Below, one piece after another: positions 4,836 to 59,346 of a stretch of 64,000 nt of DNA. The DNA is taken from sequence record PQ478073.1, one strand, 5' to 3'. The stretch's first letter is position 1, and every line of letters begins with the position of its first letter. The position numbers and the translations under genes are program-made. The DNA is from a phage. A model generated the notes under the pieces. It was not told the origin of the DNA, did no database searches, and saw only the letters and a program-made list of their open reading frames with translations.

Positions 4836-10093
<5,258 letters not shown>

Positions 10094-10219: not shown

Positions 10220-11272
10220 ATGAAATCTCTAGCTGAAATTCGTGCACACCTAAAAGCAGAACAAGAAAAAGCAGAAGCTCAAAAGAATGGTACATTTACT
10301 GGCGAGCGTAAAGCTGATTCGTTCTTAGCTTTCTGGAACGTACCTTATAACGAACCACTAAACCTACGTTTTCTACCAGATGCAGATGAGTCTAACCCAT
10401 TCTTCTGGCGTGAACGTGACATGATTAACCTAACTTTCAATGGTGTAGTCGGTATGCACACTGATAAAGTTACCGTTCAAGTACCTTGTAACGAAATGTG
10501 GGTTCCTAAATCCTGTCCGGTTCTGAAAGAAGTACGTCAATGGTTCCAAAGTGCGAATGAAACAGGGAACGAAGAACTAAAAGCAATGGCTGGTCGTTAC
10601 TGGAAGAAGAAAACCTATCTAATGCAATGTTTTATTGCTCCTGATAGCGTTGCAGTAAAAGACGACATTGCACCAGAAAATCCAATTCGTCGTATTCTGG
10701 CTAACAAAGATATCTTTGATAAAGTTAAATCCATCCTGCTAAACCCAGGCATCAAAGAGTCTCCAACTCACTACGTTCAAGGTCGTGATTTTGGTATTGT
10801 TAAAACTAAGAATGGTGGTGGTTATAATAGCTACGACATGTCTCAATTCTCCATGTCTGAGCGTCCACTAAACGAAGAAGAACTAGCAGCAATTGAAAAA
10901 TATGGCCTATACAATCTAAATGATTTTATGCCAAAACAACCAACTCCAGAAGAGTTGAAAGCAATTGAAGAAATGTTCGAAGCATCAGTAAATGGTGAAG
11001 CATATGATCCAGCACGTTGGGCATTTGCATATCGTCCAGCAGGTGTACCAAAACCTAACTCTGGAACTGTTACTGAATCAAAACCAACTCCTGCTCCAGT
11101 ACAACAAGAGTCAGCACCTGCACCAGTAGCACCTACTGCTCCAGTTACACCAGCCCCACAAGCTGCTCCAGTAACTCCAGTCGCTACCCCAGCAGCAACC
11201 ACTCCTGAAGCACCAAAAGAACAACTATCTGCATCTGCACTAGTTGCTCGTTTGAAACAACAAGGTAAGTAA
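10220..11272 (+). CDS. 32: single-stranded DNA-binding protein (T4 gp32-like) with Pro/Ala/Thr-rich C-terminal tail
   Basis: LRFLPDADESNPFF resembles gp32 core (recalled); Cys cluster; AAGGA RBS; long structured leader. Confidence 0.7.
   Translation: MKSLAEIRAHLKAEQEKAEAQKNGTFTGERKADSFLAFWNVPYNEPLNLRFLPDADESNPFFWRERDMINLTFNGVVGMHTDKVTVQVPCNEMWVPKSCPVLKEVRQWFQSANETGNEELKAMAGRYWKKKTYLMQCFIAPDSVAVKDDIAPENPIRRILANKDIFDKVKSILLNPGIKESPTHYVQGRDFGIVKTKNGGGYNSYDMSQFSMSERPLNEEELAAIEKYGLYNLNDFMPKQPTPEELKAIEEMFEASVNGEAYDPARWAFAYRPAGVPKPNSGTVTESKPTPAPVQQESAPAPVAPTAPVTPAPQAAPVTPVATPAATTPEAPKEQLSASALVARLKQQGK
11090..11220 (+). repeat. imperfect short tandem repeats encoding PAPV/TPAP low-complexity tail of SSB
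   Basis: Reiterated gctccagta / cctgcaccagta units. Confidence 0.6.
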
Positions 11273-24622: not shown

Positions 24623-24840
24623 TGAGAACAGTACTAAATGTGCATGGTCACAATACAATGGTTTCTAATGAAGAATATAAACTATTACAAAAGATAAAAG
24701 CACGCGGTACTGTTCCAGTTGAAAAGGTAAATGAATATTATCAGGAATTAGCTGATAAGATGGTATCACGTGGTGTTCTAAATAAAATAGAAAATGATGA
24801 CGGTACTGAATCTTACCAAACAGTTAGGAGTAGTAAATGA
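24622..24840 (+). CDS. hypothetical protein (72 aa)
   Basis: TAATG overlap; GAGGT RBS. Confidence 0.45.
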   Translation: MRTVLNVHGHNTMVSNEEYKLLQKIKARGTVPVEKVNEYYQELADKMVSRGVLNKIENDDGTESYQTVRSSK

Positions 24841-25514
24841 ATTACGAATATGATCAACAATCAGTTAATCAGATGGCTGATTTGTTAAGTGGATTGAATG
24901 ACATTGAAGCTGGTGAAACACATAACGCATCGGGAGTTCCATATAAAACTGGTGGTGATATCGGTGCTATGGCTTCTATTTTAACTTCATTAAATGAAGC
25001 AGGTATGGATTATGGGGTTGACCCAGAGCAACAACATCCACAAGTTGTTCCATACTATGCACCATACAACGAACATATGCTTGGACATCAATCAGTACAA
25101 CCTGTAGTTCAACGAACTCCAGCTAAACCAAAAACTAATTGGAGTTTAGTGGAAGAAAAAGTACAAGGTACTAAATCTACTAAAGTTTATAGCATTAAGT
25201 GTAATCATAGTTCACAAATTATTATGAATAATATTATGATGTATGAAGCAGCACTTACATTAGTTAATCTTCTCAATGAAGGAAGAATGTTGACAGATGC
25301 AAAAGTACTTGGTATAATCAGTTCGGGTCTTCAATACACGAATGTGATTAGTGAAGCATTGAAAGCAGCCCAGAAACGTCAACGCGTACTTAATGAATCG
25401 AAGTATGATGAAGCAAAAGATTTAGATATAATTATTGCAGAAAAGAAAGCTGAAGCGTATAAATTAAAAGAGCGTGTATTAAACTTTCTAAAAGGCGAAG
25501 GTTATATAAAGTAA
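24837..25514 (+). CDS. hypothetical protein (225 aa)
   Basis: AGGAG RBS; ATGA overlap. Confidence 0.5.
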   Translation: MNYEYDQQSVNQMADLLSGLNDIEAGETHNASGVPYKTGGDIGAMASILTSLNEAGMDYGVDPEQQHPQVVPYYAPYNEHMLGHQSVQPVVQRTPAKPKTNWSLVEEKVQGTKSTKVYSIKCNHSSQIIMNNIMMYEAALTLVNLLNEGRMLTDAKVLGIISSGLQYTNVISEALKAAQKRQRVLNESKYDEAKDLDIIIAEKKAEAYKLKERVLNFLKGEGYIK

Positions 25515-32052: not shown

Positions 32053-35091
<3,039 letters not shown>

Positions 35092-35176: not shown

Positions 35177-36479
<1,303 letters not shown>

Positions 36480-38523: not shown

Positions 38524-38718
38524 ATGACTGACAAAACATTTTATGATCGTATTATTGAAGACAAGGGAGTTTTTGATAAGGTAGTTTATGACCTAGAACT
38601 TATGATCAAAGACGCACCGAACCCCCGTGTGCGAACCCAAGCAGAATTTGCAAAAACTTATCTTGTTCAAGTTCAAGCAATCTGTGAAGCAATTAAAAAA
38701 CACAATGATAGTGCTTGA
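38524..38718 (+). CDS. hypothetical protein (64 aa)
   Basis: GGAG RBS. Confidence 0.45.
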   Translation: MTDKTFYDRIIEDKGVFDKVVYDLELMIKDAPNPRVRTQAEFAKTYLVQVQAICEAIKKHNDSA

Positions 38719-38743
38719 CAGAACTAATGTTCTATCCTATAAT
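38715..38743 (+). promoter_or_regulatory. sigma70 consensus promoter TTGACA-N17-TATAAT
   Basis: Spacer contains palindrome AGAAC-taat-GTTCT. Confidence 0.6.
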
Positions 38744-42823: not shown

Positions 42824-42857
42824 ATATCGGGACAAATCGTTCCGATATTTTTTTTTG
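42824..42857 (+). terminator. rho-independent terminator
   Basis: ATATCGG-loop-CCGATAT then T9. Confidence 0.75.
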
Positions 42858-49618: not shown

Positions 49619-49627
49619 AAAAACATG

Positions 49628-49636
49628 TGATATAAT
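49628..49636 (+). promoter_or_regulatory. extended -10 promoter TGaTATAAT, left arm of 10-bp inverted repeat
   Basis: TGTGATATAA at 49627-49636 and TTATATCACA at 49650-49659. Confidence 0.45.
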
Positions 49637-49681
49637 GTTTATTGTAGGCTTATATCACACATACAATAAAAGGATTTTGAT

Positions 49682-50361: not shown

Positions 50362-50417
50362 TAAAATATAATTAAAGCTCGGATGAATATCTGGGCTTTT
50401 TATTTGGACAGATTTTG

Positions 50418-53630: not shown

Positions 53631-54445
53631 GAATTTTAAATATGCTTAAATCTCTTCACGAAACAACCAAATTACATCAGGATGAAAAGTATCGTCGCAG
53701 CCTTACTAAAGATTTAGCATGTCGTATGTATATGCGTAGATTTGAAATTTCAAGAATTGGTAAAGGCTGGGATGATGTAAATCGTGAAGACATTGATCCA
53801 GATGCAATTTTTAAAGCATACATGGCTAGAAAAGTTTTCATAAATGAAAAAACTTTTTATATTGATAGTGATAGAGAATTAGAAAATAAATTTACAAAAG
53901 GTTTATGGAAGATATGGTGTGTTGAAGTATTCGGTGAAGTATTACCTGAGCCACCTGTTCCAGAAACTTATAAAGATTTAAAAAGTATTTTTGATAATGA
54001 ACATATACATTCAAATTTCTCATTATATGATACTGTGTCAGAAGCTGTATTTTATGGTGAGTTACATGGTCATAACAAATACTTTGATAGTATGGTTAGT
54101 TTTGATTTGTTTTGTCACTTGCCTGGTGTATCAAGTTGGACATGTGACCAACACAGAGCAAGTAAGATTGATAAGCGAAAATTCTCGGCCCAAAGATTTA
54201 TGCAAGTTGCTATGAGTATGTATAAACTTGATTATCTTGGTTGTCCAGAACCATATAAACATTTTTGGAAAGAAAGAGCACAAAAATGTTTAAACTATTG
54301 TATAATCCGTTTAATGGACACATACATTCTTAAGTTTAGAAATGCAACTGTATACGACATGCCTGAACCACCAAAGAATGAAAAATATCCACCTGTCAAG
54401 ACATTTGTATGGTACAAGGATAAAAGTAACAAAAGGATGCACTAA
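53627..54445 (+). CDS. hypothetical protein (272 aa)
   Basis: ATGA overlap. Confidence 0.5.
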   Translation: MRILNMLKSLHETTKLHQDEKYRRSLTKDLACRMYMRRFEISRIGKGWDDVNREDIDPDAIFKAYMARKVFINEKTFYIDSDRELENKFTKGLWKIWCVEVFGEVLPEPPVPETYKDLKSIFDNEHIHSNFSLYDTVSEAVFYGELHGHNKYFDSMVSFDLFCHLPGVSSWTCDQHRASKIDKRKFSAQRFMQVAMSMYKLDYLGCPEPYKHFWKERAQKCLNYCIIRLMDTYILKFRNATVYDMPEPPKNEKYPPVKTFVWYKDKSNKRMH

Positions 54446-54464
54446 GGTGCGTCCTTTTTTCTTT
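54433..54464 (+). terminator. rho-independent terminator
   Basis: AAGGATGCAC-taag-GTGCGTCCTT then T6. Confidence 0.8.
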
Positions 54465-54471
54465 TCAGGTG

Positions 54472-54500
54472 TTGACATGTGTAGTCGAAGTATGTACAAT
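54472..54500 (+). promoter_or_regulatory. sigma70 promoter TTGACA-N17-TACAAT
   Basis: Near-consensus hexamers, 40 nt upstream of ATG 54542. Confidence 0.65.
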
Positions 54501-54541
54501 ATCACCATAGCGTAAATTTTAATTGATTATGAGGTTTTATA

Positions 54542-55669
54542 ATGAAAGGTAAATATTTTTTCATTGAAAATGGCAAAGAAGTTGAGATTCAAGAATTTAA
54601 CTATAATTATGTACTGAACTCTTTATTGAAACAATATGACCGTTCATCAAACAAAAAATACATTTATAATGTAATTGTTCGCCGCACCTATGACTCATTG
54701 GGTAATCCGTTATTTGATGTAAAAACTCTGTCATTAGATGAAATCTATTTTGATAATAAACGTCTGAAAGTTCTTGATTTAATGAAGGATAAAATTCATT
54801 TTAGTAATATTAGAATTGATCCTAACATGCCAGTACCGCCATTAGAGCGTGAATATCGTGAATGGAAAGAAGGTCGTGCCAAACCACGTTTAGACTTGGT
54901 ACAAACATCACCAGATGTACCTGCACCTATTGTTCTTAAGAAAAAACCTATCAACCCAGACGATAGCAGAATTGATGACATTGAAAGATGGGTTGAATTC
55001 CCTAGTACTATTGAAAAGAATTCAGTAAAAGTACTAGACTGGTTTGTAAACTTACCAGTTTGTGCACAAGAAATTGGAACTAAGATTCAACAAATTTCAG
55101 AACGTCAATTGGATCTTAACTCAGCATTACAACAGCATAGTGATTATATTAGAATGCTTATGAATAACCTTACTGTTGCGTTGGAAACGTTGTTCCCATT
55201 GAAGCCGACCTTTACACAGAAATTGTTTGGTAAAACTGATATCAAAGTGCAACCATCAGATTTGCCAAAAGTGATGAAAGCACTAAATGAAGCAGTTAAG
55301 TATGACACTAATAAGTTTAGTGGTCTTAGTACGATGTTTTCAGAACTTAGAAACGAAGTTAATGAAATCAAAAATGAACTTGAATATGGTAAGTTGGGTT
55401 GTGAATACGCACTACGTTGTGTGGATGATGCGTTTGAATATGAATTAACATTAGAACGTATTATGAAAATGGGAATCACCACCTCCATGACTGAAACGAG
55501 CATTATTGCAACAAGTAAGCAATATCAAGTTGATATGAATCGTATGGTAGATATTCAAACTATTACTATTCCTTTGATTATCAATCGTTTACAATCACAG
55601 ACAGGTAAAGCTGTAGATGAGAGTACTGTAGAAATTATTCGTAATCTGGCATATGGTAACAAAGAGTAA
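54542..55669 (+). CDS. hypothetical protein (375 aa)
   Basis: GAGG RBS. Confidence 0.55.
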   Translation: MKGKYFFIENGKEVEIQEFNYNYVLNSLLKQYDRSSNKKYIYNVIVRRTYDSLGNPLFDVKTLSLDEIYFDNKRLKVLDLMKDKIHFSNIRIDPNMPVPPLEREYREWKEGRAKPRLDLVQTSPDVPAPIVLKKKPINPDDSRIDDIERWVEFPSTIEKNSVKVLDWFVNLPVCAQEIGTKIQQISERQLDLNSALQQHSDYIRMLMNNLTVALETLFPLKPTFTQKLFGKTDIKVQPSDLPKVMKALNEAVKYDTNKFSGLSTMFSELRNEVNEIKNELEYGKLGCEYALRCVDDAFEYELTLERIMKMGITTSMTETSIIATSKQYQVDMNRMVDIQTITIPLIINRLQSQTGKAVDESTVEIIRNLAYGNKE

Positions 55670-55679
55670 AAAAAAATAC

Positions 55680-55708
55680 TTGACTATCATACGTGCTGCC
55701 CGTATAAT
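55680..55708 (+). promoter_or_regulatory. sigma70 promoter TTGACT-N17-TATAAT with flanking inverted repeat GTGCTGC/GCAGCAC
   Basis: IR arms at 55693-55699 and 55723-55729 bracket the -10. Confidence 0.65.
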
Positions 55709-55756
55709 GTTTATCACAGAGCAGCACATCATATTAAATTAAACGAGGAATACTAA

Positions 55757-56893
55757 ATGTCCGAGAAAGAAATCAATCCTAAAAAAGCATCCACCGCAGC
55801 TAAATCAGCAAAACGTACTACTAAAACTGCGTCTAAAGGTCATACAATTGATGCAAGTGATATTTTTAACCAAACTACAAAATCACTACCAGTACTGAAA
55901 GATGTTAAGGGAAATACTATGTCTCTAACAGTTCAAAACATCAATACTGTTGGTACAACTGCTGGTGCTGCTGTTGGGCGTTTGGCTGATGAAATTATGT
56001 CTAAAGTTAATGTAACGGATGACAATACCGAGTTTGGTAAATCAATCACCACAATTCTTACGTTGACTCGTGCAGTTGATATTGACAGTCTTCAAGAAGA
56101 TAAATCAATTGTTGGACGTATTAAGAAATTCTTTGTTAATGCTCAACAGAAAGTAGGTGATCAGTACAAAAACAGTAAAGAGCAAATTGACGAAATTATG
56201 AAAACTCTTCAAACTGGTATTAATCGCCAGCACGGAGAATGTGAATGGCTTGATAAAGCATATAATGAAAACAAAGAATATTTGTTTGAATTACGTGATA
56301 CATTAGTTGGTTTAGAAGAAGTAACTAAAACACAAGATGCATTATTATTAGAAATGCAAGCAGACAAAAATGTAGACTCTTTTGCTATTCAAGAGCAAAA
56401 GATGATTTGTGAAGCACTTTCTAAACAAGAAGATAAGATTCGTCGTCTTATCATGATGTGCGAGCTAAGTGGTCCACGTTTGATGAGTATGAAAAAAGTA
56501 AACTTGAACACTGTTTCTAAGTTTGAAGATTTAAAATCTGTTGTTATTCCAGCATGGAAGTCTCAATTGGCTGAACAGTTAATTTCCGAGCGTCAACGTA
56601 AGGATAATGAACTAGGCAATCTAATTGATAATGAGACAAACCGTCTTTTGGAAACTAACTCTAAAATGGTTGCAGCAAATATGTTGGACGCAGCAAAGGC
56701 AAACAACCGTGGTATTGTGGATATTAAAACCTTGCGTAATGTACATAAAACGATGATTGACAGTATTGAAGCAGTTATTGAAGAAGAGAAAAAAGGTAAA
56801 TTGGAACGTGAACGTGCTAAACAGGAAATTGCACAACTTTCCTATGAACTGGAAGACACTCTTCGTGAAATTGCCGAAAAAGCTAACAAGTAA
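55757..56893 (+). CDS. hypothetical coiled-coil protein (378 aa)
   Basis: GAGGA RBS. Confidence 0.55.
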   Translation: MSEKEINPKKASTAAKSAKRTTKTASKGHTIDASDIFNQTTKSLPVLKDVKGNTMSLTVQNINTVGTTAGAAVGRLADEIMSKVNVTDDNTEFGKSITTILTLTRAVDIDSLQEDKSIVGRIKKFFVNAQQKVGDQYKNSKEQIDEIMKTLQTGINRQHGECEWLDKAYNENKEYLFELRDTLVGLEEVTKTQDALLLEMQADKNVDSFAIQEQKMICEALSKQEDKIRRLIMMCELSGPRLMSMKKVNLNTVSKFEDLKSVVIPAWKSQLAEQLISERQRKDNELGNLIDNETNRLLETNSKMVAANMLDAAKANNRGIVDIKTLRNVHKTMIDSIEAVIEEEKKGKLERERAKQEIAQLSYELEDTLREIAEKANK

Positions 56894-56896
56894 TAG

Positions 56897-56925
56897 TTGA
56901 CATATGAGTGCGTTTTTAATATAAT
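56897..56925 (+). promoter_or_regulatory. sigma70 consensus promoter TTGACA-N17-TATAAT embedded in terminator hairpin
   Basis: -10 lies in the loop of the 56907-56943 stem. Confidence 0.65.
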
Positions 56926-56948
56926 CTTATTGAAAACGCACTCTTTTT
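56907..56948 (+). terminator. rho-independent terminator (11-bp stem, 15-nt loop)
   Basis: GAGTGCGTTTT-loop-AAAACGCACTC then T5. Confidence 0.65.
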
Positions 56949-56972
56949 AATGTACAGATAAGGAACTAACTT

Positions 56973-57662
56973 ATGAAACGTCGTCATATTAGTGTTGATA
57001 TTGAAGCTCTTGGAACACCTGAACTTTCCGGTTATGATATTATTATCCCAAATTACGCAGCAGTAGTAGTTCCAAGTAAACCTGAAAATGACATTCGTCA
57101 GTTCTTATATATTAAATTACCATACCAGGATCAAGTTGCAACTGGTTTAAAATCAGACGCAGGTGCAATGGATTTTTGGATGAATACATGTCAGAAAGAA
57201 TACCCTAATGCATATGCTGAAGTTGCCAGTACTATGAAACTCAAAGCACCTGAACTGTATGGACCGAATGGTCAATCACGACGTTTTTTTGCATACAGTA
57301 GTATTGTTGATTTCTGGAAAGAATTACGTTACAATGATTATGGTGAAGAAGTTCCTCATTCAGTCTGGGGCAACGGATGTAACTTCGATTGTAGTATTTT
57401 ACAAGCAAACCATTTAAAACTAATGAACGCTGGTGAGTTGTGGAAGTATGATGCACCTGAAAATGCACGCACATTGAAACGTTTATTGAATGAAGAAGCT
57501 CGTATTGAAATGGATGAAATCGTTTCGGTACAGTTGGATAAATTTATCAGATATGCAAATACGTGTGGGATTAATGGGTTGGAATTACATCACCCACTGT
57601 TTGATGCAGCACGTGAAGCAATCCAGATTTCATTCTGTCTAAACAAGCTTAAAATGGATTAA
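56973..57662 (+). CDS. dexA: exonuclease A (T4 DexA-like, DEDDh)
   Basis: ISVDIEALGT, GNGCNFDCSIL (T4 CRGMSFDFPIL), HHPLFDAAREA. Confidence 0.7.
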   Translation: MKRRHISVDIEALGTPELSGYDIIIPNYAAVVVPSKPENDIRQFLYIKLPYQDQVATGLKSDAGAMDFWMNTCQKEYPNAYAEVASTMKLKAPELYGPNGQSRRFFAYSSIVDFWKELRYNDYGEEVPHSVWGNGCNFDCSILQANHLKLMNAGELWKYDAPENARTLKRLLNEEARIEMDEIVSVQLDKFIRYANTCGINGLELHHPLFDAAREAIQISFCLNKLKMD

Positions 57663-57665
57663 TAC

Positions 57666-58760
57666 ATGAATTTCATTATTCTGTTAATACCTGCTCTTAT
57701 CGTTGTATTCGTTATGAAATACATGTACGATAAGCATATCAGTACTAAAGAACTATTGATTCATATTGGTTGTTGTCTGGTTGGTGCGGCTCTTGTTCTT
57801 GGTATTTCATACGCAATCAACTATAGCCAGCTTTATGATGTTGAGATTCTGAATGGTCAAGTAACTTCAAAATACAGCCACAAAGAATATTGCACACAAT
57901 CTAGTTCATGTAAGCACTATACATGGCATGAGAAGTGCCATACGCGATATGATAGTAAAGGTAAATCACATCGTGAGTGTGAATCATATAAGGTTTTTGA
58001 TTACTCATATGAAGTTGATTGGTATGTGAAAAGTACAGTAGGTGAGTTTGAGATTGAACGTGTGAACCGTCAAGGTACAATGACACCACCACGTTGGCAG
58101 CAAGTTATTATTGGTGACTATGCCGCAGCAGAGAGTTCATATATCAACTATCTATTTGCTGATAAGAACTCATTGTTTAGTCCTGAAGAACTACACAAAA
58201 TGTATGATGAAAAGTATCTTAGTACTATTCCAGAATACCCAAGTGTAGTTGATTATTACAAAACACATCACGTAATTAACACTACAAATTACAACGTTGA
58301 TGGTTACGATGAATACCTTCGTAATGAGCTAAAAACGATGGGTGCACGAAAGCAGGTAAACATCCAAGTACTAGTTTATGATTACAAAGATGTGGATTTT
58401 GTTGATGCTACCCTTGCATCGTGGCGTGGTGGTAAGAAGAATGATGTTATTATGTTCTTTGGTATTGACAATGATGGTAATGTTGTAAAATTTTACAGTA
58501 CATCATTTGCACAAGGAATGAAGAATGAAGAGTTACATGCAAAGATGCGTATTGATGCATTAAATGAAAAATTAACTCTTGACTTACTAGTTAAAGAAGT
58601 ACATAATATTGACAAACATTTTGAGAGACTCTCTAATAAAGAGTTTGAGTACTTGTCAGTAAAAATGGAACCTAGAAAAGATGTTCTTATCGGTGCTTCC
58701 ATTGTGTTGTTGATTCTGTCTATTTTCATTGGCCTTTATATGAGGGATAACGATTTATGA
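57666..58760 (+). CDS. membrane protein with N- and C-terminal TM helices and Cys/His-rich ectodomain
   Basis: Hydrophobic N-terminus and C-terminal ASIVLLILSIFIGLY. Confidence 0.55.
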   Translation: MNFIILLIPALIVVFVMKYMYDKHISTKELLIHIGCCLVGAALVLGISYAINYSQLYDVEILNGQVTSKYSHKEYCTQSSSCKHYTWHEKCHTRYDSKGKSHRECESYKVFDYSYEVDWYVKSTVGEFEIERVNRQGTMTPPRWQQVIIGDYAAAESSYINYLFADKNSLFSPEELHKMYDEKYLSTIPEYPSVVDYYKTHHVINTTNYNVDGYDEYLRNELKTMGARKQVNIQVLVYDYKDVDFVDATLASWRGGKKNDVIMFFGIDNDGNVVKFYSTSFAQGMKNEELHAKMRIDALNEKLTLDLLVKEVHNIDKHFERLSNKEFEYLSVKMEPRKDVLIGASIVLLILSIFIGLYMRDNDL

Positions 58761-59311
58761 ATGGTAAACTCCTTGCGTTAATTGGTATTTTGGTAGTTAT
58801 CGTACTAATGGTGTTTGGTTCTATTAGTATGTATGTTGGTGCACATGATCGTGCAGTTGAGTTTGAAGGAAACATTAAAAAGTACTATGATGCATCAGAA
58901 AGTCAACTTAGCAATTATACTCTTACTATTCAAGATAAGGTTCAAGTAGCCGATAAGTATAAAGATGCGTTGAAAGAAACGATTGAATCATACTTTAAAG
59001 GGCGTGAAGGTGTTGACCAGAAGTTTGTAATGTCACAGATTCAACAACAGGTTCCAAATCTTGATCCTAAAATTTATCAGGAATTGATGGTGACAATTGA
59101 AACAGGACGTACAAAGTTCAACAATCTTCAGAAAATGAAAATTGACCAGTGTACTGATTATGCTAAGTTCCGCAAAGGCTTCTGGAATTCCAAAATTCTT
59201 GATTCGAATACGTTTCCAAGTGAAAATATTGAACACCTTTGTACAGTAGTATCTGATACGCGTACCAAGAAAGCAATGGATACTGGTATTCAAGAATCAA
59301 TTAAACTATAA
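58757..59311 (+). CDS. LemA-like membrane protein (tentative)
   Basis: N-terminal TM then YVGAHDRAVEFE and C-terminal AKFRKGFWNS...TFPSENI resembling LemA blocks (recalled). Confidence 0.45.
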   Translation: MNGKLLALIGILVVIVLMVFGSISMYVGAHDRAVEFEGNIKKYYDASESQLSNYTLTIQDKVQVADKYKDALKETIESYFKGREGVDQKFVMSQIQQQVPNLDPKIYQELMVTIETGRTKFNNLQKMKIDQCTDYAKFRKGFWNSKILDSNTFPSENIEHLCTVVSDTRTKKAMDTGIQESIKL

Positions 59312-59320
59312 TTAAATGTT

Positions 59321-59346
59321 GGGAGTACTTTGTACTCCCCTTTTCT
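59321..59346 (+). terminator. rho-independent terminator
   Basis: GGGAGTA-ctttg-TACTCCC then CTTTTCT. Confidence 0.75.

Follow-up and report, generated by a model that had tools for sequence, protein, structure and literature searches.

Can one short piece of DNA end the transcript of the gene before it and start the transcript of the gene behind it when the signals for the two tasks occupy the same base pairs? The question is raised by positions 56897–56948 of a 64 000-nucleotide stretch of the phage sequence record PQ478073.1 (the whole stretch is referred to below as the window), where a consensus σ70 promoter and a hairpin followed by a run of T overlap on the + strand. This nested element lies in the 79 nt intergenic space between a gene for a TelA-like protein and a gene for an exonuclease, the latter being the first gene downstream of the promoter. 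The region around the element shares 99.0–99.6% identity with 22 database entries for Asteriusvirus jumbo coliphages of 348–373 kb, including PBECO4, 121Q, vB_EcoM_G17, phAPEC6 and Sharanji; the window belongs to an Asteriusvirus jumbo coliphage of the PBECO4/121Q type, and its genes, nearly all on the + strand, form a replication and nucleotide-metabolism module. Judging from sequence and comparative evidence, we consider it likely that the element is bifunctional, with a terminator of the TelA-like gene and a σ70 promoter of the exonuclease gene sharing 52 bp.

A sequence-only reading of this DNA had described a consensus promoter nested inside a terminator hairpin. Its coordinates for the −35 hexamer TTGACA (56897–56902), the 17 nt spacer (56903–56919) and the −10 hexamer TATAAT (56920–56925) are confirmed in the sequence, as are the 11 nt arms GAGTGCGTTTT (56906–56916) and AAAACGCACTC (56933–56943) and the TTTTT that follows them (56944–56948). 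The loop, given as 15 nt, is miscounted, as an 11 bp stem leaves 16 nt (56917–56932). The 11 bp stem itself is present, but the helix extends beyond it: in the minimum-energy fold, 16 pairs, one of them G·U, join the 5′ arm GAGTGCGTTTTTAATA (56906–56921) to the 3′ arm TATTGAAAACGCACTC (56928–56943) around a 6 nt loop, TAATCT (56922–56927). The −10 hexamer, which had been placed in the loop, is therefore only partly there (56922–56925) and straddles the loop and the top of the 5′ arm, where 56920–56921 close the stem. By the folds, sequence variants and pair counts, the lower 10–11 bp are the conserved core. From 56906 onwards the promoter spacer is also most of the 5′ arm, while the 3′ arm spans the discriminator, the predicted transcription start and the first transcribed bases. 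Standard σ70 geometry would put this start 6–8 nt past the −10 hexamer (56931–56933, at about 56932), leaving a predicted leader of 41 nt to the exonuclease ATG. The base of the stem, GAGUGCG/CGCACUC, is GC-rich and abuts U5, and the hairpin begins 12 nt past the stop codon of the TelA-like gene on the same strand. The promoter matches the consensus at 12 of 12 positions with a 17 nt spacer; upstream of its −35 hexamer, 14 of the 20 positions of 56875–56894 are A or T, with an A5 run (window mean 66% A+T), although this stretch is also coding. The hairpin is already annotated as an ARNold terminator (56906–56943) in the GenBank record of G17, where the promoter is unmentioned. An Rfam search of 54300–57300 returned no match at the element.

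The overlap of the two signals is more than chance. The 43 nt hairpin folds with −22.1 kcal/mol, compared with −3.5 ± 2.0 kcal/mol in dinucleotide shuffles (z = −9.2, 0/200), and when the two hexamers were held fixed and the remaining bases shuffled, none of 200 sequences gave an equally stable hairpin overlapping the −10 hexamer. Perfect 12/12 promoters are also in excess: the window holds three, all on the + strand, where 0.20 would be expected over both strands together, and none of 300 shuffles reached three. For the RNA from 56932 onwards, by comparison, no structure is predicted (−4.0 kcal/mol, z = +0.76).

The intergenic region was further compared among 13 Asteriusvirus genomes (74–99% identity) and two Alcyoneusvirus genomes, RaK2 and K64-1. 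Both hexamers are unchanged in 13/13 Asteriusvirus genomes, all 12 positions being invariant while the adjacent spacer positions vary; the hexamers are thus more conserved than their surroundings throughout, the divergent phage A4 included, as is expected under purifying selection. The spacing between the hexamers is 17–18 nt in these genomes, the sole exception being CMSTMSU (15 nt), an UNVERIFIED record with many frameshifts and with fragmented genes around the element. A second UNVERIFIED record, Ecwhy_1, has a G·A mismatch in the stem; the deviations in both records are probably sequencing errors, not biology. A hairpin of −17 to −23 kcal/mol overlapping the −10 hexamer and followed by at least four T is found in all 13 genomes, and in every variant, that of A4 included, the predicted start falls downstream of the 5′ arm.

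The changes within the stem mostly preserve pairing. In Turkey5/JNE01, two adjacent compensatory double changes (A-U to G-C and G-C to A-U) turn GAGUGCG/CGCACUC into AGGUGCG/CGCACCU; UE-S1 and ph0011 each have one G·U in place of a Watson–Crick pair; and in the Turkey3/BF17 group a U·G becomes C-G, accompanied by a one-base bulge. In A4 the stem is an unrelated one, ATGTGCCCATT-GTAT-AATGGGCACAT, built around the same invariant −10 hexamer and followed by the T-rich tail ATTTTATT. In MAFFT alignments of the intergenic region the 3′ arm is displaced by one column from lineage to lineage, which made the alignments unusable for column-wise pair counts; the lower stem was registered by hand instead, whereupon 93% of the cells of the homologous lower stem pair and two pairs show double changes. 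The replacement of the whole stem in A4 with the architecture kept and the invariance of the hexamers amid variable neighbours are the strongest comparative arguments.

Outside Asteriusvirus the two signals separate. At the syntenic spot, RaK2 and K64-1 carry a textbook terminator, AAAAAGGTTCCA-CTTC-TGGAACCTTTTTTT (the 3′ arm is also given as TGGAACCTTTTT), with a 4 nt loop, and a consensus promoter is not present there; the nested promoter is hence specific to Asteriusvirus. A search for relatives of the exonuclease protein returned 121Q, RaK2 and two distant IMG/VR contigs, and the nested element is absent from both of the latter.

The molecule that folds is, by several signs, probably the sense-strand RNA. 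The hairpin is more stable on the + strand than on the − strand (−22.1 versus −16.0 kcal/mol), the + strand fold is at least as stable in six of the seven stem variants, G·U pairs number four in the + strand folds and zero in the − strand folds of these variants, and the conserved T-run stands on the 3′ side of the hairpin only. Because of this better folding of the + strand, the confinement of G·U pairs to it and the one-sided T-run, sense-strand RNA is favoured as the structure-forming molecule.

From the features, significance and evolutionary retention computed above, it may be deduced as follows how transcripts would terminate, where they would start and how far they would run. A polymerase coming from upstream, probably from a promoter at 55680, would transcribe both arms of the hairpin; the transcript of the TelA-like gene would fold the 16-pair hairpin at U5 and be released at about 56946–56951. 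The σ70 holoenzyme, or holoenzyme with an RpoD-like sigma factor of the phage's own such as has been noted in this phage group (PMC11895373), would bind the nested promoter and start at about 56932, inside the 3′ arm. RNA made from there would lack the 5′ arm, could therefore not fold, and would read through the U-tract into the exonuclease gene, probably into the next two genes as well, up to a hairpin at 59321. What would permit such nesting is the placement of the arms in the spacer and the initially transcribed region, two parts of a promoter in which almost any sequence is tolerated.

Upstream of the element, the TelA-like gene (55757–56893, + strand; toxic anion resistance) matches Pfam PF05816 TelA (E = 2e-37) and PHROG 5890, tellurite resistance. 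In the list of open reading frames (ORFs) it ends in TAA (56891–56893), and an in-frame TAG is next (56894–56896). Its promoter, TTGACT-N17-TATAAT (55680–55708, + strand), is conserved in relatives. Downstream, a Shine–Dalgarno sequence, AAGGA (56960–56964), which is conserved in the alignments, stands 8 nt ahead of the ATG (56973) of the exonuclease gene (56973–57662, + strand). The product of this gene had been called dexA-like, a label that is approximate only: Pfam PF16473 assigns it an Rv2179c-like 3′-5′ exonuclease/exoribonuclease domain, and PHROG 255 simply 'exonuclease'. Two further + strand ORFs follow (57666–58760 and 58757–59311); no strong promoter or terminator was found between the exonuclease gene and these two genes, to 59311, and they are probably co-transcribed with it. 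The next terminator-like hairpin, GGGAGTAC-TTT-GTACTCCC with a T-rich tail (59321–59339, + strand), is an annotated terminator in the records of G17 and UE-S1 and is the probable end of the transcription unit that starts at the nested promoter.

How unusual is such nesting? The sequence-only reading had listed four similar inverted repeats that bracket −10 boxes. We tested 16 intergenic and six intragenic promoter-like sites of the window by shuffling each site separately, and aligned the orthologous regions. Two of the four are above chance, one is ambiguous and one is at chance level; as all four lack a T-tract, none is a terminator of the usual kind. The hairpin at 55693–55729 is above chance (9/200), is conserved and contains a covarying pair, GTGCTGC/GCAGCAC becoming GTGTTGC/GCAACAC (C-G to U-A) in A4 and Turkey3; over 55693–55727 it brackets the −10 hexamer of the promoter of the TelA-like gene, its loop TATAATGTTTATCAC is invariant, and its − strand folds better (−17.7 versus −13.1 kcal/mol). 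That at 49627–49659 is also above chance (4/200); its 5′ arm is an extended −10 sequence, and its stem erodes in the divergent relatives Turkey5 and A4. At 10032–10068 the 8 bp repeat is present, but the better partner for its 3′ arm is a copy further downstream (10085–10092), with which it forms a covarying hairpin at 10060–10092, and 32231–32263 is not above chance (133/200). One site outside that list, 1213–1246, is significant (1/200), and none of the six intragenic sites is. The alternative hairpin at about 10058–10092, GTTTGTCGAGG...CCTTGACAAAC, has an A/T-rich run behind it and covaries in Turkey5 (GTCGGAGG/CCTCCGAC). It lies between two tandem promoters of the phage-specific class described below (class B), upstream of the gene at 10220–11272 (ssDNA-binding protein in relatives), and could be a leader attenuator; an insertion in Turkey5 carries an extra promoter copy there.

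On the scale of the genome, the 352 kb record OR844650.1, from a 99%-identical phage, was scanned for strong promoters, defined as matches of at least 11/12, and 97 were found on the coding strand. A contiguous stem of at least 7 bp overlaps the −10 hexamer in seven of the 97, against 1.4 expected. An overlapping stem with a T-rich tail occurs in two (0.17 expected), namely the element studied here and a weaker one about 14 kb downstream, and a terminator just upstream of the promoter in six (1.5 expected). The second nested case, outside the window (UE-S1 locus 35499–35541, Turkey3 locus 34509), consists of TTGACA-N17-TATAAT with a 7 bp stem, GGAGTAT/ATACTCC, over the −10 hexamer and the tail TATATTAA. 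Perfect TTGACA-N16-18-TATAAT promoters number 30 on the coding strand and zero on the other strand of this genome, and many of them fall in two clusters that are probably early-gene regions. The nested promoter/terminator is real but exceptional in this phage, not its house style.

The pattern TAATAGTTGACA-N16-18-TATAAT was also scanned in metagenome and IMG/VR contigs. With at least 120 matches per collection, almost all in unrelated phage-like contigs, it proved far too general to find orthologues, and the matches were used as a background set only. Among the matches listed, nine of 216 consensus promoters directly after TAATAG (about seven of the nine distinct, one being 121Q) are nested with a T-tail, against 0.3 in shuffled sequences; about 4% of these background promoters thus have a nested hairpin with T-tail and about 6% a tandem upstream terminator, both well above shuffles. 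The double stop TAATAG directly before a perfect consensus promoter is itself very common in low-GC phage-like contigs. The occurrence of nesting in unrelated contigs of this kind suggests a recurrent solution to compaction.

Several observations weigh against the dual function. The window phage has a loop of 6 nt, but in UE-S1, ph0011, Turkey3 and Turkey5 a weak top of the stem leaves 14–18 nt between the lower arms; these loops, which contain only small internal helices, exceed those of typical efficient terminators. Formal covariation is weak: the two double changes belong to a single lineage, and the score is reached in 54 of 500 column shuffles. The hairpins at 55693, 1213 and 49626 overlap −10 hexamers and lack a T-tract, so termination is not the general reason for such repeats, and some room is left for a role at the level of DNA or of RNA stability. 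In the literature searched there were no 5′- or 3′-end data and no transcriptome for Asteriusvirus, and a search for transcript maps of Asteriusvirus and the RaK2 group yielded only motif predictions, for CBB and GAP32. The geometry, finally, cuts both ways. The element had been said to insulate the exonuclease gene from upstream transcription, and by its layout it would indeed shield this gene from read-through, but not the promoter from occlusion: the release point lies downstream of the promoter, and upstream polymerases must therefore cross both the −35 and the −10 hexamers before terminating. Upstream transcription across the promoter may thus cause termination and initiation to interfere with each other.

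The same geometry allows a more speculative coupling. The release at 56946–56951 would lie within the footprint of the nested promoter, which makes it conceivable that the terminated polymerase is handed over and reinitiates the exonuclease transcript, coupling the output of both units and resetting the 5′ end. Escherichia coli RNA polymerase can remain on the DNA after intrinsic termination and reinitiate nearby, the evidence for such post-termination sliding and reinitiation being single-molecule (PMC6978380, PMC6978322, PMC10372574). In a related variant at the level of DNA, transient extrusion of a hairpin could make the −10 non-template bases single-stranded and speed promoter opening. 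We regard hand-over at this element as plausible in the light of the single-molecule evidence, but unlikely.

Among the other explanations, one keeps the promoter and denies the terminator. The hairpin would act on the RNA, protecting or processing the 3′ end of the TelA-like mRNA or serving as a weak attenuator, while most upstream polymerases read through. The 14–18 nt loops of the relatives, atypical of strong terminators, and the hairpins at 55693 and 49626, which are above chance or conserved without a T-tract, speak for it. So does RaK2, where the terminator alone precedes the exonuclease gene, which must then be reached by read-through, implying leaky termination. Yet no Asteriusvirus variant, not even that of A4 with its replaced stem, has lost the T-run directly behind the hairpin, a GC-rich base set against a U-tract is the canonical geometry of an intrinsic terminator, and ARNold calls a terminator here. 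We consider this explanation unlikely.

Alternatively, the inverted repeat might act on the DNA, with a supercoil-driven cruciform hiding or pre-melting the −10 hexamer and so tuning the promoter, the T-tract being incidental. With its 6 nt AT-rich centre, a 16 bp repeat is prone to form a cruciform, −10-overlapping repeats without a T-tract occur at several promoters of this phage (overlapping repeats being the seven observed against 1.4 expected), and cruciform extrusion has been recorded to repress a synthetic E. coli promoter (Horwitz and Loeb 1988, as cited in PMC6060812). A cruciform, however, needs both strands paired, and the G·U pairs are confined to the sense strand, with the + strand fold at least as stable in six of seven variants; centres of 14–18 nt in the relatives strongly disfavour extrusion, and the T-run is conserved. 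A purely DNA-level role is in our judgement improbable.

The converse possibility is that only the terminator matters, the hexamers being unused or unimportant and the exonuclease gene being expressed through read-through. RaK2 and K64-1 do manage with a terminator alone at this position, and promoter-like matches of at least 9/12 occur at chance frequency in this AT-rich genome. Full 12/12 matches, on the other hand, are about 15 times commoner than expected and all on the coding strand (30 versus zero genome-wide), the hexamers are invariant in 13 genomes and have survived the replacement of the stem in A4, and the 41 nt distance to the Shine–Dalgarno sequence and ATG is appropriate. That the promoter is idle is, on this evidence, quite improbable.

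The element may also be compared with the PeSLs (promoter-early stem-loops) of T4-like phages, in which a strong σ70 promoter and a stem-loop stand between a stop codon and the next Shine–Dalgarno sequence and ATG (Arbiol et al. 2010, PMC2839356; Comeau et al. 2014, PMC4122927). Were the element a full PeSL, it would be a repeated cassette that supplies homology for the recombinational shuffling of flanking genes. Its architecture fits the PeSL classes with a stem-loop over the −10 hexamer, and both flanking genes are of the accessory type. Its sequence, however, is unique in the window, where self-BLAST found no second copy, and the two of 97 strong promoters that are nested with a T-tail have unrelated stems. 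All 13 Asteriusvirus genomes, RaK2 and K64-1 have the TelA-like gene and the exonuclease gene in the same order, and no association of the element with gene insertion, deletion or replacement was found among the genomes examined, the flanking genes being the same throughout. After the self-BLAST of the window and the whole-genome scan, the repeated-cassette reading was rejected as very unlikely. Least probable of all, and likewise rejected, is that the palindrome is an operator for a dimeric DNA-binding regulator of phage or host: repressor operators commonly overlap the −10 hexamer and the −10 region is where the repeat has its centre of symmetry, but the arm sequence is free to change among relatives (the unrelated stem of A4, the compensated changes of Turkey5), the arms at other promoters all differ in sequence and the window holds no second copy.

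Other promoters of the window were recorded along the way. A second, phage-specific promoter-like class, with GAGACAA(A/G)C at −35 and an extended −10 sequence TGnTATAAT, stands ahead of replication genes (+ strand sites 1208, 10030, 10105, 20133, 26528, 32225, 36142 and 42855) and is retained in relatives. A similar motif, 'divergent RpoD-like', has been predicted for CBB and GAP32, and polymerase carrying the phage's own RpoD-like sigma factor may recognize this class; in several copies a GnTTGT immediately past the −10 sequence pairs with the −35-like ACAAnC. Of the other perfect promoters, that at 25290–25318, with a TG extension, lies inside the ORF 24837–25514 and has no overlapping hairpin above chance (156/200 shuffles equal). 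That at 38715–38743 has a mini-hairpin in its spacer, AGAAC-N4-GTTCT, whose arms are conserved in close relatives around the loops TAAT, CAAC, AAAA and ATTA; it is absent in A4 and Turkey5 and fits the PeSL class with the stem-loop between the boxes. Sub-threshold Rfam matches to the small RNA STnc320 at 54423–54475 (28.6 bits versus a gathering threshold of 50) coincide with the terminator hairpin 54431–54458 and most likely reflect generic terminator similarity.

The element does not reveal a new kind of mechanism. If both activities are true, it would be a clean natural case in which the same 52 bp serve as terminator and as consensus promoter, and would extend the idea of the composite promoter-terminator from T4-like phages to Asteriusvirus jumbo phages. 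It would also offer synthetic biology a compact part that combines an insulating terminator with a strong promoter, and provide a natural substrate for studying whether termination and initiation, at zero distance from each other, interfere or pass on the polymerase.

Known systems share parts of this design. Tandem cassettes, in which a terminator precedes a promoter, follow the same net logic, one transcript ending and the next starting in one intergenic space, and the window contains them at 42824–42848 (promoter 42855), 54431–54458 (promoter 54472) and 50374–50399 (promoter 50405). In these, release occurs upstream and the promoter is protected, whereas in the nested element the start site would precede release by about 15 nt; the intergenic space is 79 nt here, compared with 96–99 nt in the tandem cassettes. 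The terminator of the Alcyoneusvirus phages RaK2 and K64-1 occupies the same position between the TelA-like and exonuclease genes with a hairpin and a T-run, which are followed by AATAT and a Shine–Dalgarno sequence. The promoter of Horwitz and Loeb (1988), as it is cited in PMC6060812, shares an inverted repeat within a σ70 promoter and a competition of DNA structure with function; it is engineered and purely DNA-acting, whereas the sense-strand G·U pairs, the T-tract and the large loops in relatives of the nested element indicate an RNA hairpin. The closest likeness is to PeSLs. In those of phi1/RB49 the stem-loop is most often between the boxes or over the −10 hexamer, a lacZ assay showed one stem-loop to match rrnB T1 in termination, and the promoters were active in reporters (PMC2839356); when cloned, they were strong enough to select down-mutations (PMC2839356, PMC4122927). 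The nested element has the same near-consensus σ70 promoter, the same position between a stop codon and the next Shine–Dalgarno sequence and ATG, and a stable stem-loop overlapping the −10 hexamer, and in both the stem-loop is proposed (and for one PeSL shown) to end upstream transcription while the promoter drives the next gene. PeSLs are, however, a repeated family of T4-like phages with about 100 bp of conserved sequence and Gn-loop-Cn stems (RB49/phi1), concentrated in hyperplastic regions and linked with indels and the formation of mini-circles, whereas the nested element belongs to an Asteriusvirus jumbo phage, is unique in sequence and is syntenically stable. Because it is neither a repeated, sequence-conserved cassette nor tied to gene shuffling, we file it not as a true PeSL but as a PeSL-like composite promoter-terminator, previously unnoted in this phage group.

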